Virus record (IMG/VR): IMGVR_UViG_3300046007_006509
Location: 1 to 62,088 of that record
DNA: 62,088 bases
Source of the DNA: a virus
Taxonomy: Duplodnaviria; Caudoviricetes
Direction: 5' to 3' (one strand)
Below, piece by piece: positions 15,242-49,839 of this stretch. The position numbers and the translations under genes are program-made. Below the pieces are notes generated by a model. The model did not search any database, was not told where the DNA came from, and saw nothing but the letters and a program-made list of their open reading frames with translations. The first letter of the stretch is position 1. Each line of letters opens with the position of its first letter.

Positions 15242-16246
15242 ATGGCATCATTAGCAGAAATTCGTGCCCGTATCGCGGCACAAGAAAACAAACAACAAAA
15301 AGGCGCAGCAGGCGCTACATCTGATAACGCAATCTATCCCCACTGGAACATGGACGAAGGTACTACAGCGACCATTCGTTTTTTGCCGGATGCAAATAGT
15401 TCTAATACATTCTTTTGGGTAGAGCGTCAAATTATTAAACTTCCATTCAACGGCGTTAAGGGCGATCCTAATGTCAAGCAAGTCCAAGTTCAAGTTCCAT
15501 GTGTAGAAATGTATGGAGATAATTGTCCTATTCTTGCAGAGGTTCGTCCTTGGTATAAGGACGAGACATTGAAGGAAATGGCTAACAAGTACTGGAAGAA
15601 GCGTAGTTATTTGTTCCAAGGTTTTGTTCGTCAAAATCCTCTAGGAGATGACAAGACTCCTGCGAACCCTATTCGCAGATTTGTAATCAGTCCGCAAATC
15701 TTTGCAATCATCAAATCTAGCTTGATGGATCCTGAAATGGAAGAATTGCCAACTGATTATATGCGTGGTCTTGACTTTAATGTTAAGAAGACCAGCAAGG
15801 GCGGTTATGCTGATTATTCAACTAGTAATTGGGCCCGCAAAGAAAGTGCATTGACTGAGGCTGAACAAGCCGCACTTGAAAGTCATGGATTGTTTAATCT
15901 TACTGACTTTTTGCCCAAGAAGCCTACTGAGGCAGAATTGAAAATTATTAAGGAAATGTTTGAAGCAAGTGTTGAAGGCAAACCTTATGATAACGAACGC
16001 TGGGGTAATTACTATCGTCCGTATGGGTTGGATGCACCTGCAGGCTCGACCGCGGCTGAACCTACTGTGACTGCTGATACCAGCACACCCGCGAAGAAGC
16101 CCGTAGCAGAAAGCACACCCCCTTGGGATGCCGATGATGAATCTCAAACAAGTTCACAACCTGTACAGGTTCCAAAGACAACCTCAAGTGATAAAGCACA
16201 GGACATTCTAGCAATGATCCGTGCTAGACAAAACAAGTCTGCGTAA
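15242..16246 (+). CDS. gp32: single-stranded DNA-binding protein (T4 gp32-like)
   Basis: ATIRFLP, PC..YG..CPI, GLDF..KT.KGGYADYSTS; acidic tail; AAGGA RBS before ATG 15242; upstream of uvsX. Confidence 0.9.
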   Translation: MASLAEIRARIAAQENKQQKGAAGATSDNAIYPHWNMDEGTTATIRFLPDANSSNTFFWVERQIIKLPFNGVKGDPNVKQVQVQVPCVEMYGDNCPILAEVRPWYKDETLKEMANKYWKKRSYLFQGFVRQNPLGDDKTPANPIRRFVISPQIFAIIKSSLMDPEMEELPTDYMRGLDFNVKKTSKGGYADYSTSNWARKESALTEAEQAALESHGLFNLTDFLPKKPTEAELKIIKEMFEASVEGKPYDNERWGNYYRPYGLDAPAGSTAAEPTVTADTSTPAKKPVAESTPPWDADDESQTSSQPVQVPKTTSSDKAQDILAMIRARQNKSA

Positions 16247-16721: not shown

Positions 16722-17789
16722 ATGGGAAAACCATTTGATGTTAGTAAATTTAGAAAAGATATCACCAAATCCATTGAAGGACTTAGTATCGGATTTAATG
16801 ACCCAACTGACTGGGTTAGTACCGGCAATCATGCCCTCAATTATCTCATTAGTGGTGATTTTAATAAAGGCGTACCTCTTGGCAAAGTTACTGTCTTTGC
16901 CGGAGAGAGTGGATCAGGAAAATCATATATCTGTTCAGGCAACCTCGTCCGACACGCACAACAACAAGGCATCTTTGTTGTCTTGGTTGATTCAGAAAAT
17001 GCATTGGACGAAGATTGGTTGAAGGCACTTGGTGTTGACACCAGCGAAGATAAGTTATTGAAACTCAATATGGCAATGATTGATGATGTTGCTAAGACAA
17101 TTAGTGAGTTTATGAAAAGTTACAAGGCTCTTCCTGCAGAGGATAAGCCTAAAGTTCTTTTTATTATTGACAGCCTTGGTATGTTGTTAACACCAACTGA
17201 TGTCAATCAGTTTGAAGCAGGTGACATGAAGGGTGATATGGGTCGTAAGCCTAAGGCACTTACAAGTCTTGTTCGTAACTGTGTTAACATGTTCGGCAGT
17301 CACAATGTTGGTCTAGTCGCAACTAATCACACTTATGCTTCACAAGACATGTTTGACCCTGACGATAAAATTTCAGGTGGTCAGGGCTTTATCTATGCAA
17401 GTAGTATTGTTGTCGCCATGAAGAAACTAAAACTCAAAGAGGATGATGACGGCAACAAGGTCAGCGAAGTTCGCGGTATTCGTAGTGCTTGTAAGGTAAT
17501 GAAAACACGTTACGCAAAGCCCTTCGAAAGTGTGCAGGTTAAAATTCCTTACGAGACTGGCATGAACCCATACAGTGGCTTGCTTGATTTGTTTGAGAAA
17601 GCAGGCTTGTTAACTAAAGAAGGTAATCGTTTATCATATACTACCGATGACGGTGAAGTTCTCAAGTTCTTCCGTAAGGGTTGGGAATCAAATGACGATG
17701 GCTGCTTGGATAAGGTAATGGTTGAATACCAGAAAAAAAATCAAAATAAACTAAGTACTGTAACTACTGAGGAGGAAGTTACAGAATGA
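16722..17789 (+). CDS. uvsX: RecA-like recombinase UvsX
   Basis: Walker A GESGSGKS, DSENAL, IIDSLG, TNHTY, SGGQG. Confidence 0.93.
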   Translation: MGKPFDVSKFRKDITKSIEGLSIGFNDPTDWVSTGNHALNYLISGDFNKGVPLGKVTVFAGESGSGKSYICSGNLVRHAQQQGIFVVLVDSENALDEDWLKALGVDTSEDKLLKLNMAMIDDVAKTISEFMKSYKALPAEDKPKVLFIIDSLGMLLTPTDVNQFEAGDMKGDMGRKPKALTSLVRNCVNMFGSHNVGLVATNHTYASQDMFDPDDKISGGQGFIYASSIVVAMKKLKLKEDDDGNKVSEVRGIRSACKVMKTRYAKPFESVQVKIPYETGMNPYSGLLDLFEKAGLLTKEGNRLSYTTDDGEVLKFFRKGWESNDDGCLDKVMVEYQKKNQNKLSTVTTEEEVTE

Positions 17790-22943: not shown

Positions 22944-22965
22944 AAAAGGGACTTGTGTCCCTTTT
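22944..22965 (+). terminator. rho-independent terminator
   Basis: aaaagggac-ttgt-gtccctttt. Confidence 0.85.
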
Positions 22966-23023
22966 ACTTTGTAATTTTAATTTATTACTATATAATAAGA
23001 GGACTCAAAGGTCCTCTTACCAT

Positions 23024-23662
23024 ATGAAAAAAAATACTTTATTCAGTTTTGACACTTACAATTTTGAATGTGATAACCAATTAGTTGATATAGTTTACAA
23101 TGAAATTGTTACCCTTGACAAAAACAAACAGATTTTTTGGAACCACAATGGTTCTAATCCATCACTTGAATCATATAATGGTTATTTAAACCCTGAAACT
23201 ACAAAGTGCTTTTATAATAAAGAACTTTTAGATTGGGTTACAGAGTGCTTCAATAAAGTCAGCCAAGAGAAATACAAACAAAATTTATCTGTAGTTGATA
23301 GTTGGGTCACGAAAACAAAGTTTTTAGCTGGATCAGGCTGGCATGACCATACTATGTCAATTCTAAGTGGGGTGCTTTATTTTGACGATTCAAGTCCAAT
23401 TGAATTCAAGTATACTGATCCATATCATATTCATACTGGACTTTTTAGACATCCCGATTTTCTTAAAGCTAGCGATATTACTACAAAAGTAAATCCAACT
23501 AAAGGTAACTTTATGATATTTCCTAGTCATCTTGCACATAGGATCACACCAAATAAAAATAAATCTGATAGGTATTCACTAGCATTTAATACATTTTTTA
23601 CAGGTGAACTTTCTAATTTTAGAACTACTCGTTTGGCTTTAACTACTAAAGAACTTGAATAA
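23024..23662 (+). CDS. 2OG-Fe(II) oxygenase-like protein (TIGR02466-like)
   Basis: SW..HDH..LSGVLY..IFPSHLAH..RYSLAFN. Confidence 0.82.
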   Translation: MKKNTLFSFDTYNFECDNQLVDIVYNEIVTLDKNKQIFWNHNGSNPSLESYNGYLNPETTKCFYNKELLDWVTECFNKVSQEKYKQNLSVVDSWVTKTKFLAGSGWHDHTMSILSGVLYFDDSSPIEFKYTDPYHIHTGLFRHPDFLKASDITTKVNPTKGNFMIFPSHLAHRITPNKNKSDRYSLAFNTFFTGELSNFRTTRLALTTKELE

Positions 23663-23665
23663 GAT

Positions 23666-24310
23666 ATGAAACAAATTAACTTATTTGACATAAACCTATT
23701 TGAATTTCAGTGTGATAATAAATTAACAAAGTTTGTATATGATGAAATCATCCAATTAGATAGGAATCAACAAATATTTTGGAATAAAACTCGCGGAGAT
23801 AATCCAGGAAATGCAGGATATCTCAACAAAGAAACCTCTAAATTTTATTATAATAAAGAATTGTATAATTGGTTTGACACTTGTATTGAAAGCGTAAGTA
23901 CATCTGTACTTAAAAGAAAACAAGTTATTTGTGATACTTGGATTACCAAACATCAATTTTTAGAATATTCAGATTTTCATAAACATAGTTTTTCTGTGCT
24001 TAGTGGAGTTTTTTATTTTAACGACGGCAGTCCTATTGAATTTCAAATGCAACATCCGTGGTTAAGCAATTTGAAATTCTTTTATCCTGACGATACCACT
24101 GTATTAAAATCATCCTACACTCCTAGTGCAGGAAAATTAATTTTATTTCCTAGTGATATACAACATAAAGTAAGCGTAAACAAAACTAAAGAACCTAGAT
24201 ATTCTTTAGTTTTTAATACTTTTTTCGATGGTCTGATTTCCTCTCATCATACAGGTAAGTTAAATTTAAGTACAGCACCTGTGAAAAACTTTTCAGAAAA
24301 TACTATTTAA
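23666..24310 (+). CDS. 2OG-Fe(II) oxygenase-like protein (TIGR02466-like), tandem paralog
   Basis: TW..HKH..LSGVFY..LFPSDIQH..RYSLVFN. Confidence 0.82.
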   Translation: MKQINLFDINLFEFQCDNKLTKFVYDEIIQLDRNQQIFWNKTRGDNPGNAGYLNKETSKFYYNKELYNWFDTCIESVSTSVLKRKQVICDTWITKHQFLEYSDFHKHSFSVLSGVFYFNDGSPIEFQMQHPWLSNLKFFYPDDTTVLKSSYTPSAGKLILFPSDIQHKVSVNKTKEPRYSLVFNTFFDGLISSHHTGKLNLSTAPVKNFSENTI

Positions 24311-25332
24311 TGAATGTCTTACACATAAAATGCAATGAACATCTTTTGTATTTCATGCAATGTGGGATGATGAGGTTAAGTGCTTATGACCTTAAATTCA
24401 TTCAAAATTTGCAAACAATAATTGCATCGGCAAATAAAATTACCTCAAATCAAGTAGCTCTTTTTGATAAATTGGTTTTGAAATATGGCAGACAATTTTT
24501 AAAACATAAAATTTCTCCAGAGCATATTTCTACTTTACAGTGGAACACTCCTATGGTGATGAGTGATCCGAAATTTACTGAAGCCTATATTTGCATTGAA
24601 AACGATATAATAAAATTTCGTTCACCATTTTCTAAAAAATTTGTTGATGCTATGAGAAATAATAAACATCATAGTTTTAAATGGATTAAGGATACTAAGA
24701 ATTATCAAACAAATTTTAATGCAAACTCCTTTAAGGTCATTGTTGATTTAGCACATGAACATTATGAAAGACTTAATTTTTGTCCTATTACAAAAGAATT
24801 ACTACTTGATTTAATTGAAAAGTACGGAGAGGTAAAGTATTGGGCACCTACACTAGTCAAAATTAACAATCAGTACATGATTGCCGCAATAAATAATCAT
24901 GTCAATTCTGCTATTGAAAATATTACATTATCGGATGATCCTTTTTGCTTATCTACATTATCTGTATATGGTGTGGATATATGCGATTCAATAATTCAAA
25001 ATAATAAACTGTTAAAATTCTCGGGTACCTATGCACCTGAGGTAGACATTCACACTGAAGATATTGTATCATACTTAAAAGCAATAGAATGTGATGCAGT
25101 ATTTTTTGCAGGAAAGAGTTTTTTAAATAAAGCGGCTATTTATCCGCAACTACTTCAAAAACTCAATGACGAGAAAATTATCTATCACGTTAAGTTTGAT
25201 CCAAGTCAACATGAACTTGTAAAAAAATATAACAGACCTGTGCTGATTAACTTTGCCTACAATTTCTCGCCGGGGGCCCATTTTCTTAAGATAATTAAAG
25301 TAAAAAATTCGATTGAAGTTAATATTAAATGA
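24310..25332 (+). CDS. hypothetical protein upstream of uvsW
   Basis: 340-aa ORF coupled to uvsW. Confidence 0.65.
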   Translation: MNVLHIKCNEHLLYFMQCGMMRLSAYDLKFIQNLQTIIASANKITSNQVALFDKLVLKYGRQFLKHKISPEHISTLQWNTPMVMSDPKFTEAYICIENDIIKFRSPFSKKFVDAMRNNKHHSFKWIKDTKNYQTNFNANSFKVIVDLAHEHYERLNFCPITKELLLDLIEKYGEVKYWAPTLVKINNQYMIAAINNHVNSAIENITLSDDPFCLSTLSVYGVDICDSIIQNNKLLKFSGTYAPEVDIHTEDIVSYLKAIECDAVFFAGKSFLNKAAIYPQLLQKLNDEKIIYHVKFDPSQHELVKKYNRPVLINFAYNFSPGAHFLKIIKVKNSIEVNIK

Positions 25333-26786
25333 AACAATGTAAATTAGTCATCAAAGATGAGGTTAATGTAAAACTAGAAGGGTTAGAATTAGCCGATCGT
25401 AAAACATTAATGAAAATGTTTGAGTATGAAAAGCCGGGGGCAAGATATCTACCTTCGGTACGATTGGGCAGATGGAATGGTAAGATAAGTTATTTTAGTT
25501 TAGGCGGATCAACATATGTAAATTTGTTACCTGAAATATTACCGCTATTAGATCAAGCTGGATATGATATTGAATTGGATGATCAACGCACATATCGCAC
25601 TACTTTTAGTTTCACTCAAGTGTCCGAAAATACTTTTTCTAACTTTACATGGCCAAAAGGTCATCCAAGATCAGGCGAACCTATTATTTTGCGTGACTAT
25701 CAAGTGCAAGTAATTAATGACTTCTTAGCTAATCCACAATCAATACAAGAAGTTGCAACTGGCGCAGGTAAAACAATTACTACAGCGGCGCTAAGTTATA
25801 GTGTGCAAGAGTATGGTCGCAGTATTATTATTGTTCCTAACAAAAGTCTAGTTACACAAACAGAAGAAGATTACAAAAATGTAGGATTGGATGTAGGTGT
25901 ATACTTTGGTGACAGAAAAGAATGGGGTAAGACACATACAATTTGTACTTGGCAAAGTCTTAATAATTTACTTAAAGACACACAATCAAAAACAGCAGAG
26001 TTTACCATTCAAGAATTCATCGAAGATGTTGTTTGTGTTATGGTTGATGAAGTACATATGGCGAAAGCAGATGCACTTAAAACATTACTAACAGGGGTGT
26101 TTAGTCATGTGCCCATTCGCTGGGGTCTTACTGGCACGATACCTAAAGAAAAGTATAATGCACAGGCGTTGTATATAAGTTTAGGAAATGTAATTGGCAA
26201 ATTGTCTGCAAGTGAATTACAGGATAAGGGTGTACTTGCTCAATGTCACGTCAATATTGTTCAGCTACAAGATAATGTAGAATTTACAAATTATCAAAGT
26301 GAGCTTAAACATTTGTTAGAGGATACAAACAGGTTAGATAAAGTTGCAGAATTAATTACAAAAATAAAAGAATCGGGAAACACACTTATACTAGTTGATA
26401 GAGTTGCAGCAGGTCGAGAATTAGTTAGTAGAATAAAAGATGCTGTATTTGTAAGTGGTGAAACCAAATTAACTGAGCGTAAGGAAGAATATGATGAAAT
26501 TGCGACATCTACTAACAAGGTTATTGTGGCGACTTATGGTGTGGCCGCTGTGGGTATTAATATTCCTAGGATTTTTAATCTGGTTCTTCTGGAACCCGGA
26601 AAGAGCTTTGTTAGGGTTATACAATCAATTGGGCGAGGTATTAGAAAAGCTGAGGACAAAGAGTTCGTACAAATCTGGGACATAACTAGCAGTTGCAAAT
26701 TCGCCAAACGACATTTAACCCAAAGAAAATCGTTTTATAAGGAAGCAAACTATCCATTTGACTTGGAAAAAATGACTTACCGATGA
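25329..26786 (+). CDS. uvsW: SF2 DNA helicase UvsW
   Basis: LRDYQ, ATGAGKT, DEVH, GLTGT, GINIP, QSIGRGIR. Confidence 0.93.
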   Translation: MKQCKLVIKDEVNVKLEGLELADRKTLMKMFEYEKPGARYLPSVRLGRWNGKISYFSLGGSTYVNLLPEILPLLDQAGYDIELDDQRTYRTTFSFTQVSENTFSNFTWPKGHPRSGEPIILRDYQVQVINDFLANPQSIQEVATGAGKTITTAALSYSVQEYGRSIIIVPNKSLVTQTEEDYKNVGLDVGVYFGDRKEWGKTHTICTWQSLNNLLKDTQSKTAEFTIQEFIEDVVCVMVDEVHMAKADALKTLLTGVFSHVPIRWGLTGTIPKEKYNAQALYISLGNVIGKLSASELQDKGVLAQCHVNIVQLQDNVEFTNYQSELKHLLEDTNRLDKVAELITKIKESGNTLILVDRVAAGRELVSRIKDAVFVSGETKLTERKEEYDEIATSTNKVIVATYGVAAVGINIPRIFNLVLLEPGKSFVRVIQSIGRGIRKAEDKEFVQIWDITSSCKFAKRHLTQRKSFYKEANYPFDLEKMTYR

Positions 26787-28577: not shown

Positions 28578-30638
28578 ATGAAGTTAAAAACACTAGCATT
28601 TAGTATTGCATTAATGATGGGTAATGCATATGGTCAAACTACTAAGTTTGAAACTAGTGAGTATCTACTAAGTAAATCACTTAAATTAATTAATGCAAGT
28701 TCTGCTTATAATCGCGGATATACAGGTAAAGATAGTGTGATTGGTGTTATCGATACTGGTATCGATACCAGTAATGACCAGTTTAAAAATAAAATTCTTT
28801 TTGTAAATGATTTTTCAAGTAGTGGAACCATAATTGATAGAGTTGGTCATGGTACTCACGTTGCAGGTATTGCCGCCGCAGCCAGAGATGGTATAGGAGT
28901 TCACGGCGTAGCTTATGATGCAAAATTAATTATCGCCAAGGTAACAGATAACGGATCAGTCGGTACTGCTAACTTGATTAATGCCCTGTCATGGGTTAAC
29001 AGCACCGGAGCAGATGTCGTTAATATGAGTTTAGGCTGGATGGTATCAAGTAACTATTCTATGGCCAAACAAATCGGAACTGGTCTTTATTCAACAAAAT
29101 TTTCTAATACAGGTACTCTTCCAATTGGTAGTTTATTTGATGTGCCTGCCCTAGTAAAGTCTTTGCAAAGTGAAATGGTAATTGTTGTTTCAGCAGGCAA
29201 CGATAAAACAAAATGGTCACAGGGATTGGCAGGACTGGCAACTCTTACTGACAGTAAAGGGAATCTCGCACTAGGCGGTAGAATGATTATTGCCGGTAAC
29301 TACGATCAAAATTCAAATCAAGTTAATCCAACAAGTAATGGTGCAGCGCATTTATGCCAAAATGTTGTCAAGGGTGTAATGAATCAAGAATATTGTGCTG
29401 ATAAATTCAAGACATGGGAGTTTTACATTTTGGCACCAGGCACAAGTATTATTAGCACCGTGCCCAAGATAGATGGAATTCCACAAAAATTAGATTCATC
29501 GTTTAATCCAACCGGATTAGCTACAATGACAGGCACATCAATGTCAGCACCTGCAGTATCTGGAGCTGTTGCAATTATACATCAAATGTGGCCGCAAATG
29601 AAAGGTGCTAATATAGTAAGGTTGTTGCTTGTAACAGCAAACAAAACTATTCCCAATTACAATTTGTATGTACATGGACAAGGGTTGCTTGACCTAGAAA
29701 AAGCGACACGCCCTATCGGCAATTTGGGTATCCCAACAACAGGTAGGTTGTCTGGTCCCAATCTCACTAATGTCCGTCCGTTAGTTTATACGGGTGGTAG
29801 CGCAAGCACAGGTGGGTTGACTAATGTTATGGTTGTCGATGAATTTGAACGAGACTTTTATACTGATAGTAAATTGCTTACAGCCTATAAAGTTAAACCT
29901 CAATTCAATTTAAACCAAATGATGTTTACTTATGAAGGCAAAAATCCTTATGTGTTGTTTAATAATTACTCACATAAACACATTACAGGAAACAATTCTA
30001 TTGAATTTTCCATGTATAGAGATTTATACAACATGCAAAGCAATGTAGGTATGTTAGAGTTTGGATATAAAAAAGAGTATGATTATGCAAATGTAAAATT
30101 CATCGGTGGTTATTTTAACGAAGCAAACACTTGGTTGGGCAACACCATTGGTAGTTTTGCAGGTGAGGGTAATAATAAAAATAGTCATACTACTTACATG
30201 GGTCTGCATGTAAACAAGCAACTATCTAACACCAACTTATACGCTAGTTTTATTACAGGGGTAACCAATACAAATTCTAATAGTGAAAACATTACAAGTA
30301 TTGGCAAAGCATATAGTAATACCTATACTATGGGAGCAGAACATAATGTTGGAAATAATACCTTTGGATTAATGTACTATAAACCGGTAACTGTACATAG
30401 AGCTATGGCTGATATTGTTGCCCCTGTGGGATTAGATAATGAATTTAATATTATTCAAAACTCAAGAGCTAATCTGGCTGCATCAGTAAAAGAACATAGA
30501 CTTGGATTTTATCATAAGTTCGAAGATAAGAAGTATTATAAATCTATGGCATTTATCGAATCAAGGTATAATTATAGAGGTCAAGAAGGCATGAAAGACA
30601 CAGCAGTGGGTGTAAATTTTACTAAATACTTTCATTAA
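28578..30638 (+). CDS. secreted subtilisin-like S8 serine peptidase with a beta-rich C-terminal domain
   Basis: Signal peptide; triad motifs VIDTG, HGTHVAG, GTSMSAPAVSG; oxyanion SAGND. Confidence 0.93.
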   Translation: MKLKTLAFSIALMMGNAYGQTTKFETSEYLLSKSLKLINASSAYNRGYTGKDSVIGVIDTGIDTSNDQFKNKILFVNDFSSSGTIIDRVGHGTHVAGIAAAARDGIGVHGVAYDAKLIIAKVTDNGSVGTANLINALSWVNSTGADVVNMSLGWMVSSNYSMAKQIGTGLYSTKFSNTGTLPIGSLFDVPALVKSLQSEMVIVVSAGNDKTKWSQGLAGLATLTDSKGNLALGGRMIIAGNYDQNSNQVNPTSNGAAHLCQNVVKGVMNQEYCADKFKTWEFYILAPGTSIISTVPKIDGIPQKLDSSFNPTGLATMTGTSMSAPAVSGAVAIIHQMWPQMKGANIVRLLLVTANKTIPNYNLYVHGQGLLDLEKATRPIGNLGIPTTGRLSGPNLTNVRPLVYTGGSASTGGLTNVMVVDEFERDFYTDSKLLTAYKVKPQFNLNQMMFTYEGKNPYVLFNNYSHKHITGNNSIEFSMYRDLYNMQSNVGMLEFGYKKEYDYANVKFIGGYFNEANTWLGNTIGSFAGEGNNKNSHTTYMGLHVNKQLSNTNLYASFITGVTNTNSNSENITSIGKAYSNTYTMGAEHNVGNNTFGLMYYKPVTVHRAMADIVAPVGLDNEFNIIQNSRANLAASVKEHRLGFYHKFEDKKYYKSMAFIESRYNYRGQEGMKDTAVGVNFTKYFH

Positions 30639-31630: not shown

Positions 31631-31859
31631 ACAAATCAGCCCGTTCATCGAATTTGTTGAATATGAGATTGTAAACCCAAAAGACACAGGTAAAAAAGTA
31701 TTTCGTTGTAAGGGCGATCCAACAACAGTTATTAAATGGTGTAGAAAAAATTTCGGAAATAGGGGAGATGGCTGGGACTTTTCAGGTTCAGGCAAAACGC
31801 TAGATATAACAATATGGTCTAGTAGATTAATAACAATGTACACATTATGGCAAGAATAG
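31614..31859 (+). CDS. small LRW-family-like protein
   Basis: IKWCRKNFGNRGDGW, similar to NWCENTFGQGG of the ORF at 32544. Confidence 0.6.
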   Translation: MAVPFEQISPFIEFVEYEIVNPKDTGKKVFRCKGDPTTVIKWCRKNFGNRGDGWDFSGSGKTLDITIWSSRLITMYTLWQE

Positions 31860-32551
31860 TAAAATCACAATTAACAGAAAATACAGGATATATCGTTTTA
31901 GAAAAAATTATTCCTGATCACTTGGTCGATAGTATAGTTGCAAAATTAGATACACTGTATCCTGTTCGTGCTTCAAGTTCAACTAAAAAATATGCAGAAA
32001 AAGATGATATTAAAAATTTGACTGACATAAGTGTTTGGTGGAGTCAAATGGTTATGGATTGGCCAGAGGTTATTGAAATTAATAACCTAATCATCGATAA
32101 AGTTAAAGAACATTTACATAATGCTGAATGGTATGCTAGTGATATTGTGACCATTGAAAAACATAGTAAATGGATAAACCCCCATATAGACACACCGCAT
32201 CGTTTTAAAAAATATAACTATGATAGAAGATTACTAGGTGTTCAGGCTATTGTCTCACTTTTTGATTTAGATAAAACTACAGGTGTTACGGGTGTCGTTC
32301 CTAGAAGTCAAACACAAGATTTTAATATAAATTTATGTTATCAAGGTTTTTATAATACTTGGTTCATGAAAAACTGTGTTCAACCTAATTTACCCAAAGG
32401 TAGTGTTTTGTTTTATAATTGCAGAGTTTTACACAGCAGTATGCCAAATGAACAAAATAGTCCTCGCCCAGCATTATTGTTAAATTACTTGGATGGTAGT
32501 ATAATTGAAGATGTAAAGACTATGGACAATATTTGGGCAAGTAATGGTTGA
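31847..32551 (+). CDS. phytanoyl-CoA dioxygenase (PhyH)-family 2OG-Fe(II) oxygenase
   Basis: PHID (HxD), GVVPRS, KGSVLFY..VLHSSMPN..RPALLLNY. Confidence 0.85.
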   Translation: MARIVKSQLTENTGYIVLEKIIPDHLVDSIVAKLDTLYPVRASSSTKKYAEKDDIKNLTDISVWWSQMVMDWPEVIEINNLIIDKVKEHLHNAEWYASDIVTIEKHSKWINPHIDTPHRFKKYNYDRRLLGVQAIVSLFDLDKTTGVTGVVPRSQTQDFNINLCYQGFYNTWFMKNCVQPNLPKGSVLFYNCRVLHSSMPNEQNSPRPALLLNYLDGSIIEDVKTMDNIWASNG

Positions 32552-33001: not shown

Positions 33002-33249
33002 TTTGGCAACTATCAAGGCATCATATGCTTCAAGACCGTTATAAGAATTTAGAAGTAGGTACAGTCGTAGGAATAGAACATGACTGGGTTCCTACATTCG
33101 CACTATTGCCTCATAGAACTATCAGTAAAAAATGGATATGGTTGCGTAAAATTTATATGCGTAGAGTTTGGGTTTATACAGGCTTTATTGATGAACCAGA
33201 AACACACTATGCTGAATTGTTCGATATATTGAAAGATAGCGATGGCTAA
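32998..33249 (+). CDS. small hypothetical protein
   Basis: W..FALLP.RTI..KWIWLRKIY pattern; ATGA overlap. Confidence 0.6.
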   Translation: MIWQLSRHHMLQDRYKNLEVGTVVGIEHDWVPTFALLPHRTISKKWIWLRKIYMRRVWVYTGFIDEPETHYAELFDILKDSDG

Positions 33250-33799
33250 TGATATAATGATTGATCTGGAGACACTTGACACAACTCCATACTGTGTCAT
33301 ACTGACTATTGGAGCTGTGAGATTTGATCCAAAGGGTATGGGAGTTGTTGAAAGATTAGAATTGCGTCCTACGATTGAGGATCAAACAGAAATACATAAT
33401 AGGATTATCAATGAAGATACATTACGATGGTGGTCTACACAGAGCCCTGAGGCACTTGAAGAAGCATTGGGAGACAGGGGACGCATATCATTTAGAGAGT
33501 GCATGGAGACCCTTTATAAGTTTTGTTGGAACCGTCGTGCTGTTTGGAGTAATGGTGCAGGCTTTGATATCGTAGCATGTGAAACTGGTATGCGACAAAC
33601 ACTAACCGAATATCCTAATCCTATTCCTTGGCCCTTCTATACCGCTAGAGATACTAGAACATTGTATGAGATTGCTGGTGTCAAGTTAAAAGATGGTGGA
33701 CATGTGACAAGTCACAAAGCAGTAGAAGATGCTGAACGACAGGCTATTGTCGTGCAACAAGCATATATAAAATTAATGAAAGCAGGATTAGCGACATGA
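33242..33799 (+). CDS. DEDDh 3'-5' exonuclease
   Basis: ExoI MIDLETL, ExoII WSNGAGFD, RDTRT, ExoIII HKAVEDA. Confidence 0.9.
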   Translation: MANDIMIDLETLDTTPYCVILTIGAVRFDPKGMGVVERLELRPTIEDQTEIHNRIINEDTLRWWSTQSPEALEEALGDRGRISFRECMETLYKFCWNRRAVWSNGAGFDIVACETGMRQTLTEYPNPIPWPFYTARDTRTLYEIAGVKLKDGGHVTSHKAVEDAERQAIVVQQAYIKLMKAGLAT

Positions 33800-34260
33800 A
33801 AATTTACGGGCAAATTTTACCCGGTATAAAACTTATAGAGCATAAAAAGCATATAGACCATAGAGGTGATTTTTGTGAGTTATGGAAAATCAACGAGGAT
33901 GCTATGCGCGGTACTTACAGACAGCTTAATTTAGCAACATCTACTAAAGGTGTTTTGCGCGGTATGCATCGCCAAGATCAAACTAAATTTGTAACCGCAG
34001 TAGTCGGAACAGTGTTTGATGTGGCTTTAGATGTTAATACTAAACAATGGGTCGCTGTAGAGTTAGACGGATCAAATGCGATACTGATACCGCCACAATA
34101 TGCACATGGTTATTTGGTGTTGTCGGACATGGCAAAAGTACAATATATGGTGGACGCGCCTTACAATAAAGCACAAGAAGAAAATTTTAATTACAATGAT
34201 TATGGCATTATTTGGCCTGCTGACATAGAGGTAATTTTAAGTGAAAAGGATAGTAAATGA
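33796..34260 (+). CDS. rmlC: dTDP-4-dehydrorhamnose 3,5-epimerase
   Basis: DHRGDFCE, GVLRGMH, VFDVALD, IPPQYAHGY, ILSEKD. Confidence 0.88.
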   Translation: MKIYGQILPGIKLIEHKKHIDHRGDFCELWKINEDAMRGTYRQLNLATSTKGVLRGMHRQDQTKFVTAVVGTVFDVALDVNTKQWVAVELDGSNAILIPPQYAHGYLVLSDMAKVQYMVDAPYNKAQEENFNYNDYGIIWPADIEVILSEKDSK

Positions 34261-34739
34261 AGATAGGATTTAATTGTAGTAGCTTCGACCTTTTCCATGC
34301 AGGTCATGTTACTATGCTTAAAATGGAAAAACAATTGTGTGATTATTTGATTGTAGCACTACAAGTAGATCCTACAGTTGACAGACCCGGAGTAAAAAAC
34401 AAACCTACTCAAAGTGTTTATGAGCGGTATGTGCAATTACAAGCATGTAAGTATGTAGATGAAATTCTAGTTTATTCGACAGAATACGATTTGTTACAAT
34501 TGCTTATGACACAAACAATCCATATTCGTTTCTTAAGTGAGGAGTATTTAAACCGCGACTTTACGGGTAAACAATATTGCATTCAAAACGGAATTGAATT
34601 ACACTATCATAAAAGACAGCACAACTATAGTTCTAGTGAATTACGAGCAAGAGTACATAAATTAGAATCATTAAAAAATAGTGAAAGTTTAGATAATGAC
34701 CATCCACAATATTCTCCGGAATTAATTAAAAATCCATGA
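34257..34739 (+). CDS. cytidylyltransferase-family (TagD-like) nucleotidyltransferase
   Basis: FDLFHAGH (HxGH), KYVDE, YSSSELR. Confidence 0.88.
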   Translation: MKIGFNCSSFDLFHAGHVTMLKMEKQLCDYLIVALQVDPTVDRPGVKNKPTQSVYERYVQLQACKYVDEILVYSTEYDLLQLLMTQTIHIRFLSEEYLNRDFTGKQYCIQNGIELHYHKRQHNYSSSELRARVHKLESLKNSESLDNDHPQYSPELIKNP

Positions 34740-35317
34740 AATTCAAGAGCGACATTGACATCGATTTCGGTGACAGGGAAAAAATATTGTCATTAATTGA
34801 ACATATTCCTGCCGCTATGCGTAAAGTTAGTCCCATGCGTAAACATGCTACCGGCGTATATGTTACAGAAATTCCATATGATCCTGTAAATGACATGGCA
34901 GCAATAGATTACGCTGAAGCAGAAACACGAGGATATTTAAAACTAGATTTTTTAAATGTGCATGTTTATAATCAGGTTCGTGATGAGCAACATTTAATAG
35001 AATTGATGCGTGAACCTAATTGGGACAATCTTAAAAATAAAGATTTTGTTGAAAAATTAATTCATTTGGGAAATCAATATTCAACTCTGCGTAATATGCC
35101 TGAACCAGTGAATAGTATTCCAAGATTAGCAATGTTTCTAGCTATTATTAGGCCAGGTAAAAAACATTTAATCGGAAAGTCTTGGCAAGATGTTGCAAAA
35201 ACGGTATGGGCTAAGGATCAAACAGGTTATACTTTTAAGAAAAGTCACGCTGTTGCTTATGCACACCTAGTTGTTGTGCATATGAATTTGTTAGAAGAAA
35301 CTACGGTAATCGTTTAA
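34736..35317 (+). CDS. miniature DNA polymerase III alpha (DnaE)-like catalytic subunit
   Basis: SDIDIDF, KHATGVY, GYLKLDFL, LAIIRPG, FKKSHAVAYA occur in DnaE order within 193 aa. Confidence 0.85.
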   Translation: MKFKSDIDIDFGDREKILSLIEHIPAAMRKVSPMRKHATGVYVTEIPYDPVNDMAAIDYAEAETRGYLKLDFLNVHVYNQVRDEQHLIELMREPNWDNLKNKDFVEKLIHLGNQYSTLRNMPEPVNSIPRLAMFLAIIRPGKKHLIGKSWQDVAKTVWAKDQTGYTFKKSHAVAYAHLVVVHMNLLEETTVIV

Positions 35318-35681
35318 CTAATGTTATACTACGTCTTTTCGACCTTCTTTTATGAAGTTCGTTCATACTAGTTACAGGTCCATGTAATACCATTAAACTT
35401 TTGTTCATAAAAGTGCGAAGATAGGGCTTGAAAGGAGCCCATTCATCCTTAAGGAAAAGGTTTATGGGGATAAGTCTATTACTTTCCCACCACCAAATAT
35501 CACCCAATTCTAAGAATTTAGCCTTTATATCAGGTTCAACTATGGAACCATAGTCATATATTGTTGTTACAATATCATCTCTGTTTTGTATTATGCCAAC
35601 ATAATCTTGGTTGGCATACGAACAAACTGTTATAAAAGGGTGATTTTCACTAAGTTTCTTAAAAAACTCATTCTGTAGCAT
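35301..35681 (-). CDS. hypothetical protein (late, divergent)
   Basis: 126-aa ORF with basic C-terminus; reverse TAAATA at 35707-35712. Confidence 0.7.
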   Translation of the reverse strand: MLQNEFFKKLSENHPFITVCSYANQDYVGIIQNRDDIVTTIYDYGSIVEPDIKAKFLELGDIWWWESNRLIPINLFLKDEWAPFKPYLRTFMNKSLMVLHGPVTSMNELHKRRSKRRSITLVKRLP

Positions 35682-36607: not shown

Positions 36608-37579
36608 ATGTTTGATATCCTATCTGTAGTCCCGGGCAGAAAAAAACTCACGCAAAGTGGATGGTATAGTTTCAATGCCGTTTGCTGCCATCATCGCGGT
36701 CATAAACCCGACAAAAGAAGTCGCGGCGGAATCAAAACAGATGGCGACAATTGGAGTATGCATTGTTTCAATTGTGGCTTTAAATGCGGATTCACATTAG
36801 GAAAAAGTTTAACAAAAAACACAAAGCAATTACTTACTTGGTCGGGTATTGACGATTCGCAAATTAGTAAATGGAACCTTGAAAGTTTACAACACAAAGA
36901 TTTATTAAGTTATGTAAACATAAAAAAACAAAAGAAAAAAATAAAATTTAAAGATCATGTATTACCTGAAGGTGAATTGCTTGATGAGACAAATCCATTA
37001 CACAAATTATATGTTGATTATGTGCAATCTCGGGGTATAAATGTACGTGACTACCCCTTTATGATTACGCCAAACGATGTTGGTCGTCAAGGTAATAGAA
37101 TCATTATTCCATATACATATCAAAATAAAATCGTAGGTCATACAAGTCGTTTTATTGACAATAAAATACCTAAATACATTAATGAGCAACAGCCCGGTTA
37201 TGTGTTCGGAATAGATTTTCAGAAGCCAGAATGGCAAGTTTGCATATTGGTAGAAGGAATATTTGATGCACTAAGTTTAAATGCCTGTGCATTAACGCAT
37301 AACACTATAAATGATGATCAAGTTGAATTGCTAGCACAATTAAATAGAAAAATTATTTTTGTGCCTGATCATGATAAAACAGGATTAGCAACTTGTGATA
37401 GAGCGTTAGAGTTAGGATATAGTGTTAGTATTCCTGAATGGGATGTCGATGTTAAAGATGTAAATGATGCAGTTGTAAAATATGGTAAACTTGTAACATT
37501 AATTAGTATATTACAAAATGCAACAACAAGTAAAGTAAAAATCGGAATACAAAGGAGAAAACTTGAGCATAGAATATAA
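36608..37579 (+). CDS. gp61: DNA primase (T4 gp61-like)
   Basis: Zn-binding CC..HCFNCG, RIIIPY, TOPRIM VEGIFDA and DHD, KDVND. Confidence 0.92.
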   Translation: MFDILSVVPGRKKLTQSGWYSFNAVCCHHRGHKPDKRSRGGIKTDGDNWSMHCFNCGFKCGFTLGKSLTKNTKQLLTWSGIDDSQISKWNLESLQHKDLLSYVNIKKQKKKIKFKDHVLPEGELLDETNPLHKLYVDYVQSRGINVRDYPFMITPNDVGRQGNRIIIPYTYQNKIVGHTSRFIDNKIPKYINEQQPGYVFGIDFQKPEWQVCILVEGIFDALSLNACALTHNTINDDQVELLAQLNRKIIFVPDHDKTGLATCDRALELGYSVSIPEWDVDVKDVNDAVVKYGKLVTLISILQNATTSKVKIGIQRRKLEHRI

Positions 37580-38987
37580 TCATGAAATGCAACTATTATT
37601 TTTGCGTATGATGGTAACAAACGCAGAACTTTATACTAGAGTTATGAATATTATGAACCCTAGTAATTTTGATAAAAAATTAAAACCGGTAGCAGAATTT
37701 TTAGTACAACATAGTAAAAAATACAATGTAATGCCTGAACCTACGCAAATTAAAGCTGCGTCGGGAGTTGAAGTTGAATGTATACATGAACTTGATGAAG
37801 GACATTATGATTGGTTTTTAGATGAATTTGAAAAATTTACAAAAAGGCAAGAGCTTGAACGAGCCATTCTAAAGTCAGCAGACTTGTTAGAGAAAGGTGA
37901 TTATGGTCCTGTAGAAAAATTAATTAAAGATGCTGTACAAATTAGTTTACAGAAAGATATGGGTACAGACTATTTTGCTGATCCTAGAGCTAGACTAATG
38001 GCACTTAAATCTAATAACGGACAAAATAGTACAGGTTGGCCTAGCATGGATCAGAAACTTTATGGTGGTTTTAATCGAGGCGAACTGCAAATATTTGCAG
38101 GTGGATCAGGTTCAGGCAAGAGTCTTTTCATGCAAAACTTAGCAGTCAATTGGGCACAAGCAGGTTTAAATGGTACATACATCACCCTAGAACTAAGTGA
38201 GGGTCTATGTAGTATGCGTATTGATAGTATGATGACCGATACTAGCAGCAGAGAAATCTTCAAAGATATTGACAATGTTGAAATGAAGGTAAAAATGCTT
38301 GCTAAAAAAGCTGGCAAACTTCGAATAAAATATATGCCAGCGCAAAGCACTGTAAATGATTTAAGAGCATACTGCAAAGAACTACAAATTCAAACAGGAG
38401 TTGGAATAGATTTTCTTTGTGTCGATTATTTGGATTTGTTAATGCCAGTCAGTGCTAAGGTCAGTCCTAGCGATTTGTTCGTTAAAGACAAATATGTATC
38501 AGAAGAACTACGAAATTTAGCAAAGGAATTAAATGTTTTATTCGTCACAGCAAGTCAACTTAACAGATCAGCCGTTGAAGAAATTGAATTTGATCACAGT
38601 CATATCTCGGGTGGTATTAGCAAGATTAATACTGCGGACAATGTTTTTGGCATTTTTACTAGCCGTAGTATGCGTGAGCGCGGCCAATACCAACTTCAAT
38701 TAATGAAAACTCGCAGCAGTTCTGGTGTAGGTCAGAAAATTGAACTAGAATTCAATGTTGAAACATTGCGTATTACAGACCCTGATCCTGACGGCAGTAA
38801 CAATGCATATAGGACAGGAAATCCGCAACCTAGTCCTAGTGATTTAATGAATAAATTAAAGCCTCAATCTACTGTAACGGAAAAAATAGACGCTGTTACA
38901 GGAGAAATAGAACCTGAAAATAAGCGTGTGGTAGCAGATGTGCAGGGTGCAAAACTCAAAGCCTTACTAAACTCATTAAAGAAGTAA
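37563..38987 (+). CDS. gp41: DnaB-like replicative helicase (T4 gp41-like)
   Basis: GGSGSGKS, ITLELSE, VDYLDL, TASQLNR, MKTRSS; TTG start after AAGGAG. Confidence 0.93.
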   Translation: MSIEYNHEMQLLFLRMMVTNAELYTRVMNIMNPSNFDKKLKPVAEFLVQHSKKYNVMPEPTQIKAASGVEVECIHELDEGHYDWFLDEFEKFTKRQELERAILKSADLLEKGDYGPVEKLIKDAVQISLQKDMGTDYFADPRARLMALKSNNGQNSTGWPSMDQKLYGGFNRGELQIFAGGSGSGKSLFMQNLAVNWAQAGLNGTYITLELSEGLCSMRIDSMMTDTSSREIFKDIDNVEMKVKMLAKKAGKLRIKYMPAQSTVNDLRAYCKELQIQTGVGIDFLCVDYLDLLMPVSAKVSPSDLFVKDKYVSEELRNLAKELNVLFVTASQLNRSAVEEIEFDHSHISGGISKINTADNVFGIFTSRSMRERGQYQLQLMKTRSSSGVGQKIELEFNVETLRITDPDPDGSNNAYRTGNPQPSPSDLMNKLKPQSTVTEKIDAVTGEIEPENKRVVADVQGAKLKALLNSLKK

Positions 38988-46674: not shown

Positions 46675-49600
46675 ATGGCTATAGTACAGATATCAAAACT
46701 ACAACAACGAGCAGGTAATATTGTTGATTTACCACAGCTAGATGAGGCTGAATTTGGTTTCGCCAGTGATGCTAAACGCTTGTTTATTGGTAAAGTAAGT
46801 CCAAATGAAAATATTGAGGTACTAACCTCTTATTCAAATATATCTTTTAGTCAAATTCAAGGGGCTGAAGGTAACCTAGATATTTCCGCTATTACAGTTG
46901 ATGATGGACAGGTCCTTACTTATGACGGTACAAATTGGGTAAATCGCGGTGGTGATGCTGGCGGACTTATTACCTTAGGTGATGTAGGAAATGTAAGAAT
47001 TGATGGCGGGGCTATTGGTTATGTATTAGAAACTGATGGCACAGGAAATTTAACTTGGGCACCGAAAACAACCGTAACTTCCTTTATACAAAATGCTACT
47101 CAGGCTAATCCCTGTGTTATTACAACTACCCAAGACAATTTCTTCACAGAGGGAGCAGAAGTTACTATAACGAATGTTCCAGGAATGACACAACTAAACG
47201 GCAATAGCTATTATGCAAATGTAATTAGTTCCAATTCTTTTTCACTATACTCTGACGCAGGCTTGACTACTCCTGTAAATTCAGGAGGGTTCAGTGCTTT
47301 CCCGACTACCACTGCTACTGCAACTACAGCAGGAACAAATATTATTACAGTGGGATCAAGTGCTGCCTTTACAATTGGTAATCCTGTAAATTTAGTAGGC
47401 ACAGCTATTGGTGGATTAAGCACTGACACTACATATTATGTAAAAACAAAACCTAGCGGCACTGAAATAACAGTCTCATTAACTGCTGGTGGTGCGAATG
47501 TAGCACTAACTACTGCTTCAGGTTCGTTCACTATTTTTGAAACAGGCGGCAGAGTTATTTCTTCCGTCAGTGGTAGTGGATCAGCTACAGCTGGTGGTGC
47601 AAACACAACAATACAATTTAATAACAATAATATATTAGACGGCGATGCCGATTTTACTTGGAATTATTTAACTAATGTTTTAAATGTTAATGGCAACGCA
47701 AATGTTGGCAATTTAAATGCCACATCCAGCGTCATTGCTAGTACATTAACAAGTAATGTTGCAACAGGAACAGCACCGTTAACAGTTTCAAGTACCACAA
47801 GAGTTAATAATTTAAATGTAGCTTATGCTAATGTCAGTGATTTTGAAGTTGTTACTGCACAAACCACAGGCACATTCTTTCCTGTGTTTGTAAATGGTAG
47901 TGCGACAGCAAATAGAGCACTGGCAGCTAACGCAAATTTAGGCTTTAATGCTGCAACAGGTAATTTATCAGCTACCATACTTTATGCTAATTCAACAATT
48001 ACAGCAGTAGGCAATATAGTAGGTGCTAATATTGATACAGCAGGTAATGTTACAGCAAGTCGTTTAATATCAAATGTATCAACAGGCACTGCACCGTTAG
48101 CAGTAACTAGTACAACCAGAGTGAACAACTTAAATGTAGCATATGCGAATGTTGCAGACCATGTGAATGTTGCAGATGTTTCGACAGGAACTTACTATCC
48201 AATACTAGCTAATGCAGCAACAGGCAATGTAGCTGAGGGTTCAAATACAGCCTTAACTTTTAATGCAGCCACTGGCGCATTAAATGCTACTTTACTAGGT
48301 GGTACACTTACTACAGCGGCGCAGCCGAATATAACTAGTTTAGGAACACTAACAAGTTTAACTGTTTTTGGCACACTAACCGCTAACGACATAGCAACAT
48401 TTGGCACAGCCGGCGATGCGTTAAATATCACAGGCGCAGGCAATACCAATGTTAATGGCGCTGGCGGATTAATTAATATTGCTGCGGCTCAGGGAAATGG
48501 CACAGGTGCAGGCGGCGCAATAACACTTGCGGGAGGTAACGCAAATACTTCAGGAAATGCAGCAGGTGGCATTGCTACATTAACAGCAGGCAATGCATCA
48601 GGACAAGGTCAAGGCGGTACTGTTGGAATCTATTCAGGTTCTTCATCAAACGCTACCGGCGGTTTAGGTGGAAATATAGTTATTACCGGAGGCGTATTTG
48701 ACGGTGATGGCGGTGATATAACGATCTCAGCAGGAAATGCCACTAGCACAAATAGAACCGGTGGGGATGTTTTAATTAAAGCAGGTCCTTCTACAGGCAG
48801 TCAGGCTGTAGGAAAAATAACATTTCAAACATCAACTCCCGGTAGTTCAGGCGCAACAGTACAAACATTAACAGATAGAGTTATAATTGATGATACGCAA
48901 ATGAATGTGCGTTTCACAACCGCATCTACATCAACTACAACTGGTGCATTAGAAGTTGCAGGTGGAGTTGGCGTAGTAGGTAATGTCTTTGCCGCGGCTT
49001 TTTATGGAGCAGCAACAGGTCTTACTGGTTTAGTAGGTGCCAATGTGACAGGTACTGTAGCAAATGCTACACATGCGTCAACTGCAAATACTGTAACAAA
49101 TGCTGCTCAGTCGAATATTACATCAGTAGGAACACTTTTATCATTACAGGCTAATACAGGATCATTAACAACAGTAAGTGCTCCATTTATATTTGACCAA
49201 GTTTGGAATAATTCTAGTGTAGTGTTTACTGCAATTAAACAAAATATAACAGATACTGCAAGCGATGGTGCAAGTAGGTTAATTGATTTACAAGTAGCTG
49301 GAGTAAGCAAATTCTATGTCGATAAGGTAGGCAATGTAATTGCAGGTAATTTGTCATTATCATCTACTGGCACTGCTATTCTCGGTGCTATTTCAACAGG
49401 TGCAAACACTACACCCGGCAATATTACAGGCAATTGGACATTAACATCAGGTTCAAGATTTAATGCTACCTATGCTGACTTAGCAGAATATTACGAAGCA
49501 GACGGATTATATGATGCAGGGACAGTATTAGAATTTGGTGGCGAAAAAGAAGTGACAATAGCTAGTGATGGCACCACAAGAGTTGCAGGCGTTGTGTCTA

Positions 49601-49839
49601 CTGATCCTGCATTTGCAATGCATGCCAAATGCAATGGATTGGCAGTGCCAATAGCACTTCAGGGTCGTGTACCAGTTAAAGTCAGAGGTCAAATACGCAA
49701 AGGCGACATGATGATAAGTGGTGGAGGTGGGTTTGCTAGACCAAGCAAATCACCATTAATGGGCAGTGTAATTGGTAAAGCATTAGAAAATTTTGATGGC
49801 GTTGAGGGCGTTATTGAAATTGCAATAGGCAGATTATAA
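46675..49839 (+). CDS. long tail fibre/virion fibre with a C-terminal peptidase-G2/IMC-like domain
   Basis: MAIVQISKLQQRAG..LPQLDEAEFG N-terminus; G/T/A/N-rich shaft; ADLAEYY..ALQGRVPVKV..IGKALE C-terminus. Confidence 0.82.
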   Translation: MAIVQISKLQQRAGNIVDLPQLDEAEFGFASDAKRLFIGKVSPNENIEVLTSYSNISFSQIQGAEGNLDISAITVDDGQVLTYDGTNWVNRGGDAGGLITLGDVGNVRIDGGAIGYVLETDGTGNLTWAPKTTVTSFIQNATQANPCVITTTQDNFFTEGAEVTITNVPGMTQLNGNSYYANVISSNSFSLYSDAGLTTPVNSGGFSAFPTTTATATTAGTNIITVGSSAAFTIGNPVNLVGTAIGGLSTDTTYYVKTKPSGTEITVSLTAGGANVALTTASGSFTIFETGGRVISSVSGSGSATAGGANTTIQFNNNNILDGDADFTWNYLTNVLNVNGNANVGNLNATSSVIASTLTSNVATGTAPLTVSSTTRVNNLNVAYANVSDFEVVTAQTTGTFFPVFVNGSATANRALAANANLGFNAATGNLSATILYANSTITAVGNIVGANIDTAGNVTASRLISNVSTGTAPLAVTSTTRVNNLNVAYANVADHVNVADVSTGTYYPILANAATGNVAEGSNTALTFNAATGALNATLLGGTLTTAAQPNITSLGTLTSLTVFGTLTANDIATFGTAGDALNITGAGNTNVNGAGGLINIAAAQGNGTGAGGAITLAGGNANTSGNAAGGIATLTAGNASGQGQGGTVGIYSGSSSNATGGLGGNIVITGGVFDGDGGDITISAGNATSTNRTGGDVLIKAGPSTGSQAVGKITFQTSTPGSSGATVQTLTDRVIIDDTQMNVRFTTASTSTTTGALEVAGGVGVVGNVFAAAFYGAATGLTGLVGANVTGTVANATHASTANTVTNAAQSNITSVGTLLSLQANTGSLTTVSAPFIFDQVWNNSSVVFTAIKQNITDTASDGASRLIDLQVAGVSKFYVDKVGNVIAGNLSLSSTGTAILGAISTGANTTPGNITGNWTLTSGSRFNATYADLAEYYEADGLYDAGTVLEFGGEKEVTIASDGTTRVAGVVSTDPAFAMHAKCNGLAVPIALQGRVPVKVRGQIRKGDMMISGGGGFARPSKSPLMGSVIGKALENFDGVEGVIEIAIGRL
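47752..48153 (+). repeat. internal duplication in the fibre (SNVxTGTAPLxVxSTTRVNNLNVAYANV x2)
   Basis: Near-identical 28-aa units at about 47752 and 48070. Confidence 0.8.

Follow-up and report, generated by a model that had tools for sequence, protein, structure and literature searches.

A 193-residue DnaE-like protein of an uncultivated phage, putatively the C-terminal half of the minimal, split Pol III alpha known from group 2.2 jumbo phages

What a protein of only 193 amino acids (aa) that carries the motifs of a bacterial replicative polymerase could be doing in a phage is the question raised by the DNA described here. The window, i.e. the whole stretch that was analysed, is 62,088 nucleotides (nt) long (IMG/VR virus record IMGVR_UViG_3300046007_006509; Duplodnaviria; Caudoviricetes). 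In an original prediction, made by a model from the sequence letters, the gene at positions 34736..35317 was read as a miniature DnaE, either a split or minimal polymerase with its GRGS-containing half encoded elsewhere or a repurposed nucleotidyltransferase. The best explanation, and in our judgement a very likely one, is that the product is the C-terminal subunit of a minimal Pol III alpha-like nucleotidyltransferase in two pieces, specific to the jumbo phages of group 2.2 (Rak2/121Q/GAP32, PA5oct, Atu_ph07, XacN1 and many uncultivated relatives). On sequence grounds the gene is assigned to the C-terminal unit (C-unit) of this split enzyme, phrog_11778. The gene and its motifs are located as follows.

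34736..35317, + strand: C-unit gene, 193 aa, taken from the list of open reading frames (ORFs) and identified by phrog_11778, Pol III alpha profile matches and the AlphaFold2 model
34751..34765, + strand: DIDID, residues 6-10; D6 and D8 equal E. coli D401 and D403 (metal ligands), D10 equals D405
34841..34861, + strand: KHATGVY, residues 36-42, counterpart of E. coli KHAGGVV at 510
34940..34948, + strand: K69-L70-D71, equal to E. coli K553-F554-D555, with the third catalytic Asp
35150..35158, + strand: R139-P140-G141, equal to E. coli R639-P640-G641 (fingers)
35234..35263, + strand: FKKSHAVAYA, residues 167-176, equal to E. coli FNKSHSAAYA 756-765

The ATG of the gene overlaps the TGA of the cytidylyltransferase-like gene upstream (ATGA), and its own TAA stop codon is at 35315-35317. 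The claim of five DnaE motifs in DnaE order was borne out: SDIDIDF, KHATGVY, KLDFL, IRPG and FKKSHAVAYA begin at residues 5, 36, 69, 138 and 167 of the protein, and E. coli K-12 DnaE contains PDFDVDF at 400, KHAGGVV at 510, KFDFL at 553, FRPG at 638 and FNKSHSAAYA at 756, with GRGS at 361; the E. coli strings quoted in the prediction were all verified in K-12 DnaE, in identical order. A degenerate pattern of the five ordered motifs matched one of the 87 stop-to-stop frames of at least 100 aa in the window and none of 20,000 shuffles of the 193-aa protein.

The protein matched phrog_11778, 'DNA polymerase', with E 5.7e-58, residues 2-190 lying on profile positions 4-195 of 197, and residues 143-186 gave weak local matches to long DnaE-type PHROG families. 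A diverse alignment was prepared from the window protein and 78 near-full-length representatives of the 150 listed (n=79), the homologues being only 30-60% identical to the window protein. D6, D8, K69, D71, R139 and P140 were invariant in these 79 sequences, and D10, H37, G40, K168 and H171 were present in at least 90% of them. When PDB chains were searched with the profile of this alignment, all nine matches were Pol III alpha (best E 1.6e-5). The alignment with E. coli alpha was collinear, profile positions 54-140 pairing with 538-641 and 151-180 with 739-769; the pairing of 4-20 with 399-417 was also collinear, though not significant alone. Since the profile alignment is collinear, D6, D8 and D71 were equated with D401, D403 and D555, and the three catalytic Asp residues are thus kept, as had been predicted.

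The AlphaFold2 model built from the 79-sequence alignment reached a pLDDT (predicted local distance difference test) of 95.7 and a pTM (predicted template modelling score) of 0.89. In a Foldseek search ranks 1-9 were all occupied by Pol III alpha chains (TM-scores of 0.42-0.50 on query length), ranks 1-7 having probability 1.00 and one match only E<=0.001; rank 10 was an unrelated toxin-antitoxin complex (probability 0.14). The top nine chains of a second aligner (VIA) were likewise all family C polymerases, aligned over 184-190 of the 193 residues with Z values of 9.6-6.2 (PolC 9.6, Taq alpha 9.3, 5lew 8.9, E. coli alpha 7.9); Z values of such size can be common, but here they stood far above the rest, the first unrelated chain having Z 3.5, and they spanned the whole protein. 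The comparison of the fold with DnaE, suggested in the original prediction, was in this way carried out, and the model matched family C polymerases over residues 1-193. The C-unit consists of the DnaE palm beta-sheet with D6, D8, D71 and K69, and of reduced fingers with the RPG and KSH motifs. Its membership of the C-family (DnaE-like) polymerases is held with high confidence.

Bacterial DnaE (E. coli K-12 b0184, 1160 aa; PDB 2hnh, 5fku; Taq 2hpi, 3e0d) shares with the window protein the palm beta-sheet, the three Asp residues, the KxD motif and, in identical order, the RPG and KSH motifs of the fingers. The fold match spans E. coli alpha residues 398-781, but about half of this span is missing in the window protein and nothing corresponds to the part beyond 781. 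Only 5 residues precede the DxD motif, in comparison to 400 in E. coli alpha, and about 17 follow the KSH motif, in comparison to about 395. KHATGVY comes 30 residues after DxD instead of 109 (79 fewer), and FKKSHAVAYA comes 28 residues after RPG instead of 117 (89 fewer). The residues between DxD and KHxxG reportedly form the thumb in the E. coli alpha structure, so the short first gap indicates that the thumb is absent; the short second gap indicates the absence of a large part of the fingers. Taken together, the missing stretches are presumably the PHP domain and the N-terminal palm, the thumb, part of the fingers and the clamp-binding/OB domains. The chain has neither a PHP domain nor a GRGS motif, in agreement with the prediction: it starts 5 residues before DxD and gave no PHP-domain match in Pfam. 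In contrast to DnaE, the polymerase is split into two genes and the window protein lies below the detection level of Pfam PF07733; it shows none of the features by which a canonical DnaE was judged (PF07733 score; PHP and GRGS within the chain; thumb, full fingers, clamp-binding, helix-hairpin-helix (HhH) and OB domains, the domain names being those we take to apply).

The top structural score belonged to PolC of Firmicutes (PDB 3f2b; root-mean-square deviation 3.5, 188 residues, chain range 968-1299), from which the window protein differs in sequence, the identity over aligned residues being 14%. PolC is a single chain of about 1,400 residues into which exonuclease and PHP domains are inserted. 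In cyanobacteria, too, a C-family polymerase is encoded in two places far apart, the two parts of their split dnaE being joined by a split intein. Joining of this kind was considered and rejected here, because only 5 residues precede DxD and the N-terminal units end right after the GRGS helix. With no room for intein halves, assembly of the units would have to be non-covalent.

The small GRGS-containing partner was searched for in relatives of the window phage and was found there. In all three cultured reference phages (Atu_ph07, Ettore and GAP32) the Pfam DNA_pol3_alpha model gave one above-cut-off match each (35.9-37.3 bits, model positions about 18-98), with one further sub-threshold match in GAP32. 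This N-terminal unit (N-unit) is a separate ORF of 169-188 aa ending in GRGS and a short helix. An N-unit of about 170 aa (35-37 bits, model positions about 18-99) was also present in three of five long IMG/VR relatives, including both of those that are at least 90% complete; the two relatives with no match are 40% and 58% complete. The N-unit is located 34-182 kb from the C-unit in cultured relatives and about 43-46 kb downstream of it in IMG/VR relatives. It occurs in 97 of 50,697 phage records and the C-unit in 96, with near-identical organism tallies, and GRGS was invariant in 39 N-units. By a weak profile alignment (E 0.24-0.9) the N-unit ends at about E. coli alpha residue 392, and the C-unit alignment begins at 398-399, which places the split in the loop that connects the GS helix with the DxD strand. 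Three natural fusions (P0181, P0271 and P0272; 375-376 aa) contain both units joined by an 11-residue linker; they have PF07733 on record, come from short contigs and make up 3 of the 16 matches at E<=0.001 among 4,262 candidates. Such fused forms could be used as single-chain versions for biochemistry.

Co-folding, another check named in the original prediction, was run with the window protein and the N-unit of the closest long relative. The interface score ipSAE (interaction prediction score from aligned errors) was 0.89 in three runs and 0.00 for the best of three controls; among solved complexes 58 of 80 attained this mark, as did 2 of 110 mismatched pairs, though both figures are only rough where own alignments are used. 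The contacts agreed by at least 97% between runs and the pLDDT of the partner was at least 87. In the predicted interface, residues 2-12 of the C-unit (the DxD strand) touch N-unit residues 128-141, including GRGS. The modelling suggests that the two units likely form a heterodimer. The claim of a split minimal C-family polymerase with its GRGS half elsewhere is supported by the GRGS protein of the relatives and by the published split (see below).

The location of the partner is explained by the state of the record. The window is the whole IMG/VR record and was estimated by CheckV to be 18% complete. It is collinear with G005, the closest long relative, window positions 34,736, 46,675 and 58,402 corresponding to 15,482, 27,154 and 36,562 of G005, in which the start of the N-unit is near 59,018 and that of a family B polymerase near 84,000. 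Given this collinearity and the distance of about 44 kb between the units in relatives, the window ends about 19 kb before the expected partner. The observation in the original prediction that no gp43 is present holds for the 62-kb window, in which no family B polymerase was found, but as a hint at a phage with no such enzyme it appears misleading: intact frames of 901-917 aa for a family B polymerase are present in G001, G002 and G005, which comprise the two relatives of at least 90% completeness and the closest long contig. Its absence from the window is most likely due to the window being a genome fragment.

The family is not new. In the passages of Iyer et al. 2021 (PMC7824862) that deal with these phages, the jumbo phages of 'group 2.2' were described, from sequence, as having a minimal Pol III alpha that is specific to phages and comes in two parts, an N-terminal unit that binds NTP (nucleoside triphosphate) and a C-terminal one that binds Mg and the template. 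According to the same passages the minimal enzyme accompanies a family B polymerase in group 2.2, and cooperation with the latter on one strand or in repair was suggested. The minimal form was argued there to be ancestral, as an idea for the origin of the bacterial replicase; the 'internal in-frame deletions' of the original prediction presume the opposite direction, a reduction from full DnaE. A Pol III alpha subunit was also annotated in Atu_ph07, as stated in the relevant part of Attai et al. 2018 (PMC6102473). The C-units of the group (Atu_ph07 gp074, Ettore_0017 and GAP32_282) resemble the window protein in length class, full-length profile match, motifs and neighbourhood, and the system as a whole in the distant GRGS unit and the family B polymerase of the window's relatives; the difference is in sequence, none of the 96 matching records exceeding 49% identity. 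The window thus adds one more uncultivated member to a family published in 2021 and no new principle. The reading of the raw sequence had recovered this family and had foreseen that a GRGS partner would be encoded at a distance.

In the tblastn search that gave these 96 records, all matches listed were to jumbo phages or their fragments. Identity was highest in the PA5oct group (49%), followed by Atu_ph07 (46%) and the Rak2/121Q/GAP32 group (about 40%); XacN1 and SCTP-2 were also matched. The C-unit was annotated in the records as 'hypothetical protein', 'putative membrane protein' or 'DNA polymerase', and in one case as 'DnaE-like DNA polymerase III alpha'. A megablast search of the polymerase region against the phage records gave no match.

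The gene was also followed in metagenomic sequences, where the family is very common. A relative is encoded by 472 IMG/VR stretches, of which 80, with proteins 70-88% identical to the window protein, were kept. At E<=0.001 a deep search returned 391 clusters when proteins were grouped at 50% identity; in a word-based search with grouping at 90% identity, at least 7,996 clusters passed the same cut-off among 8,000 candidates scored. The best 120 homologues were 79-99% identical, with lengths of 192-198 aa and, in 112 cases, of exactly 193 aa. The window gene belongs to an abundant uncultivated lineage. An intact frame of 187-206 aa with aligned start and stop was found in 79 of the 80 loci, the remaining one being cut by the contig end, and all catalytic-type residues (D6, D8, D10, H37, G40, K69, D71, R139, P140, K168 and H171) were identical across the 53 unique proteins of these close relatives. 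The ratio of nonsynonymous to synonymous substitution rates (dN/dS), whose determination across homologues had been proposed in the original prediction, was calculated for these 53 unique proteins from 80 genes. For the window gene itself against its closest relatives dS was saturated (1.6 to undefined) and dN/dS unreliable, so the estimate comes from less diverged pairs of relatives: in the 59 of 1378 pairs with 0.05<dS<1 the median was 0.070 (minimum 0.011, maximum 0.241). The C-unit gene is under strong purifying selection.

The surroundings of the gene contain the following features.

35301..35681, - strand: convergent gene, 126 aa, function unknown (phrog_11637); its 3' end and that of the polymerase gene share 17 nt
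36608..37579, + strand: Toprim primase (gp61-like), Pfam Toprim_2 E 2.3e-6, two genes downstream of the polymerase gene; same place in Ettore and GAP32
37563..38987, + strand: DnaB-like replicative helicase (gp41-like), phrog_19 E 3.4e-73, Pfam DnaB_C E 8.7e-21; same place in Atu_ph07, Ettore and GAP32
15185-16246: gp32-like single-stranded DNA-binding protein (SSB), phrog_1192
16722-17789: UvsX-like recombinase
25329-26786: helicase, phrog_16 'DNA helicase'
33242-33799, + strand: Rv2179c-like 3'-5' exonuclease, E 2.3e-29, about 1 kb upstream of the polymerase gene

Atu_ph07, Ettore and GAP32 have the genes in the same order, namely C-unit, small convergent ORF, protein of 260-320 aa, primase and DnaB helicase. 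The tail-to-tail overlap of 14-17 nt is also found in these three phages, and the product of the convergent gene is 42% identical to its Ettore counterpart (E 2e-38) and is present in 89 phage records, whose taxon tallies equal those of the polymerase halves. Conservation of the convergent overlap might reflect a function that the genes share or a coupling of their regulation. A large terminase and a tail sheath protein (phrog_11196) are encoded in the window as well, and by its gene content the window appears to fit a group 2-type jumbo myovirus background, with gp32-type SSB, DnaB helicase and contractile tail. The original prediction had the protein working with gp41, gp61, gp32 and clamp proteins; the SSB, the primase and the DnaB-type helicase are indeed encoded in the window, but the clamp is unconfirmed, no clamp family being matched among the 36 distinct ORFs scanned of the 78 listed. 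The Rv2179c-like DEDD exonuclease was considered as a conserved proofreading partner and rejected, as unrelated genes occupy this place in Ettore (E 3.1), GAP32 (E 1.6) and Atu_ph07 (E 0.57).

In the mechanism that we propose, the two proteins would assemble non-covalently into one Pol-beta-type active site. The N-unit together with K69, R139, K168 and H171 would hold the incoming nucleotide triphosphate, D6, D8 and D71 would hold two Mg ions, and the assembled pair would extend a primer 3' end on a template. Because the DNA-gripping, clamp-binding and proofreading parts are absent, the enzyme would probably act on short patches, with low processivity, assisting the family B replicase. Its task might be to elongate the primers of the primase that is encoded two genes downstream, or to close gaps in recombination-dependent replication. 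To judge from the sequence, the pair is probably an active nucleotidyltransferase, and there may be an even chance that it is a templated DNA polymerase. A role in primer extension, attractive from the position beside the primase, is speculation and unlikely though conceivable. Quite unlikely, in our estimate, is the wider proposal that the pair of about 360 residues is a thumb-less, clamp-independent second polymerase which extends primase products before hand-off to the family B replicase, with the product of the convergent gene (phrog_11637) perhaps as a third subunit. The primer-extension role and the third subunit are our own speculative proposal. Were the wider proposal true, no smaller C-family polymerase core would be known, and the pair would be a living model of how the bacterial replicase arose.

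Several observations weigh against the assignment to a two-piece polymerase or against parts of it. No Pfam family was matched by the 193-aa protein at E up to 10, and a single-sequence phmmer search of PDB returned nothing relevant, only a chance match to thioredoxin reductase (E 1); the link to DnaE consequently requires a profile or a fold. Nor did PF07733 itself (DNA_pol3_alpha) match any part of the window at E up to 10. The GRGS partner was not found in the window, which is a fragment, either with the Pfam model or with the Ettore N-unit protein as a query, and both the partner and the family B polymerase of the window's own genome are extrapolated from collinear relatives and would be expected rather than seen. 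The N-unit profile gave no significant match in PDB (E 0.17-0.9, the top row being an unrelated structural protein), and its alignments with solved Pol III alpha were so weak (E 0.24-0.9) that their register alone is informative. The fold predicted for the fused form P0181 was poor (pLDDT 49.1, pTM 0.41). In the complex prediction the partner was a stand-in, taken from a relative whose C-unit is 87% identical, and the score may reflect the model's memory of solved DnaE palms, i.e. likeness rather than binding. With the thumb and all DNA-holding C-terminal domains lost, processive templated synthesis is doubtful. Biochemical work on the minimal Pol III alpha family was not found in the literature searched, which did not extend to subscription journals; activity, substrate and template dependence have all been deduced, and in the passages of Iyer et al. 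2021 (PMC7824862) the reconstitution of an active polymerase by the two units is a deduction too.

The lost DNA-gripping domains could also be explained by repurposing, the protein being an active Pol-beta-fold nucleotidyltransferase that works with no template and adds nucleotides to DNA or RNA ends or makes a nucleotide-derived product. The motif spacing, which implies no thumb, the lack of a clamp-binding/OB region in 193 residues and the presence of a full family B replicase in this genome group are in line with such an activity, as is the weak tail of the Foldseek list, which includes MenT and Cid1 (E at least 0.29, probability at most 0.14). To our knowledge, however, the RPG and FxKSHAxAYA motifs are specific to family C polymerases, in which they face the incoming nucleotide and the template, and the fingers motifs RPG and F-x-K-S-H-A-x-A-Y-A are invariant or near-invariant here. 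The strong fold matches are to family C polymerases only, over all 193 residues, and the position beside primase and replicative helicase is conserved, so that the non-templated activity appears decidedly improbable. The same residues bear on a protein with a DnaE-like fold that would serve as a non-catalytic replisome or structural accessory. That activity is a deduction and that some records say 'putative membrane protein' or 'hypothetical protein' would fit such a role, but pseudo-enzymes usually lose their catalytic residues, and in this family the three Asp, K69, R139, K168 and H171 are invariant or nearly so in 79 sequences and the GRGS loop of the partner is invariant in 39. We regard such a pseudo-enzyme as highly improbable and retain the C-terminal subunit of a two-piece enzyme as the better explanation.

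The 62-kb window with no family B polymerase could suggest that the protein is the sole replicative polymerase and replaces a T4-type gp43. The window represents only 18% of the genome, though, and the 901-917-aa family B polymerase, intact in both near-complete relatives and in the closest long contig, contradicts this reading for the relatives; in group 2.2 the minimal enzyme accompanies a family B polymerase, according to the passages of Iyer et al. 2021 (PMC7824862) on this group. The sole replicase was rejected and is extremely improbable. A decaying fragment of a captured bacterial dnaE would be in keeping with a length of one sixth of DnaE and with the failure of Pfam to recognise the protein. 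Frameshifts or loss of Asp residues in homologues, which the original prediction had named as signs of decay, were not observed: frames are intact at 79 of 80 loci and the Asp residues are invariant. Together with the low median dN/dS, the cluster numbers at both identity levels and a gene order conserved from Agrobacterium to Escherichia phages, this refutes decay, whose probability is next to nil. The split minimal polymerase that is favoured instead belongs to a family remarkable for a C-family core of about 360 residues encoded by two distant genes beside an archaeo-eukaryotic-type family B replicase. Since no experimental work on it was found, the family is a good target for biochemistry, both for the minimal requirements of C-family enzymes and for the reason why jumbo phages keep two polymerases.

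Some further observations concern the genes around the two units. At the N-unit loci (L089, L090, L005, L006 and L007) the N-unit is followed by a protein of about 110-140 aa with 'VGNMxVNARGD' and then by a protein of about 108-122 aa, an order kept from Agrobacterium to Pseudomonas phages and in the IMG/VR relatives. The protein of about 108-122 aa gives the impression, by the look of its sequence, of being GroES-like.

Directly upstream of the C-unit gene (within 33242-34739, + strand) there are a dTDP-4-dehydrorhamnose 3,5-epimerase-like (RmlC-like) gene (E 3.1e-34) and the cytidylyltransferase-like gene (E 2.6e-13). These two sugar-nucleotide genes are present in the window but not upstream of the C-unit in the group 2.2 reference phages Atu_ph07, Ettore and GAP32. 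Two other regions, 3354-6594 (+ strand) and 22955-24310 (+ strand), encode a nucleotide-sugar epimerase, a radical SAM protein, a protein with a weak aminotransferase-like match and two adjacent paralogues of 2-oxoglutarate-Fe(II) oxygenases, and a PhyH-like dioxygenase is encoded at 31847-32551. The sugar-nucleotide and modification-type genes of the window might serve the modification of DNA or of surface glycans. A subtilase-family protease of 686 aa (Pfam Peptidase_S8, E 5.7e-38) is encoded at 28578-30638 (+ strand), and a 1054-aa protein with a tail-fibre-like C-terminus at 46675-49839 (+ strand), the latter with weaker paralogous matches elsewhere in G005.

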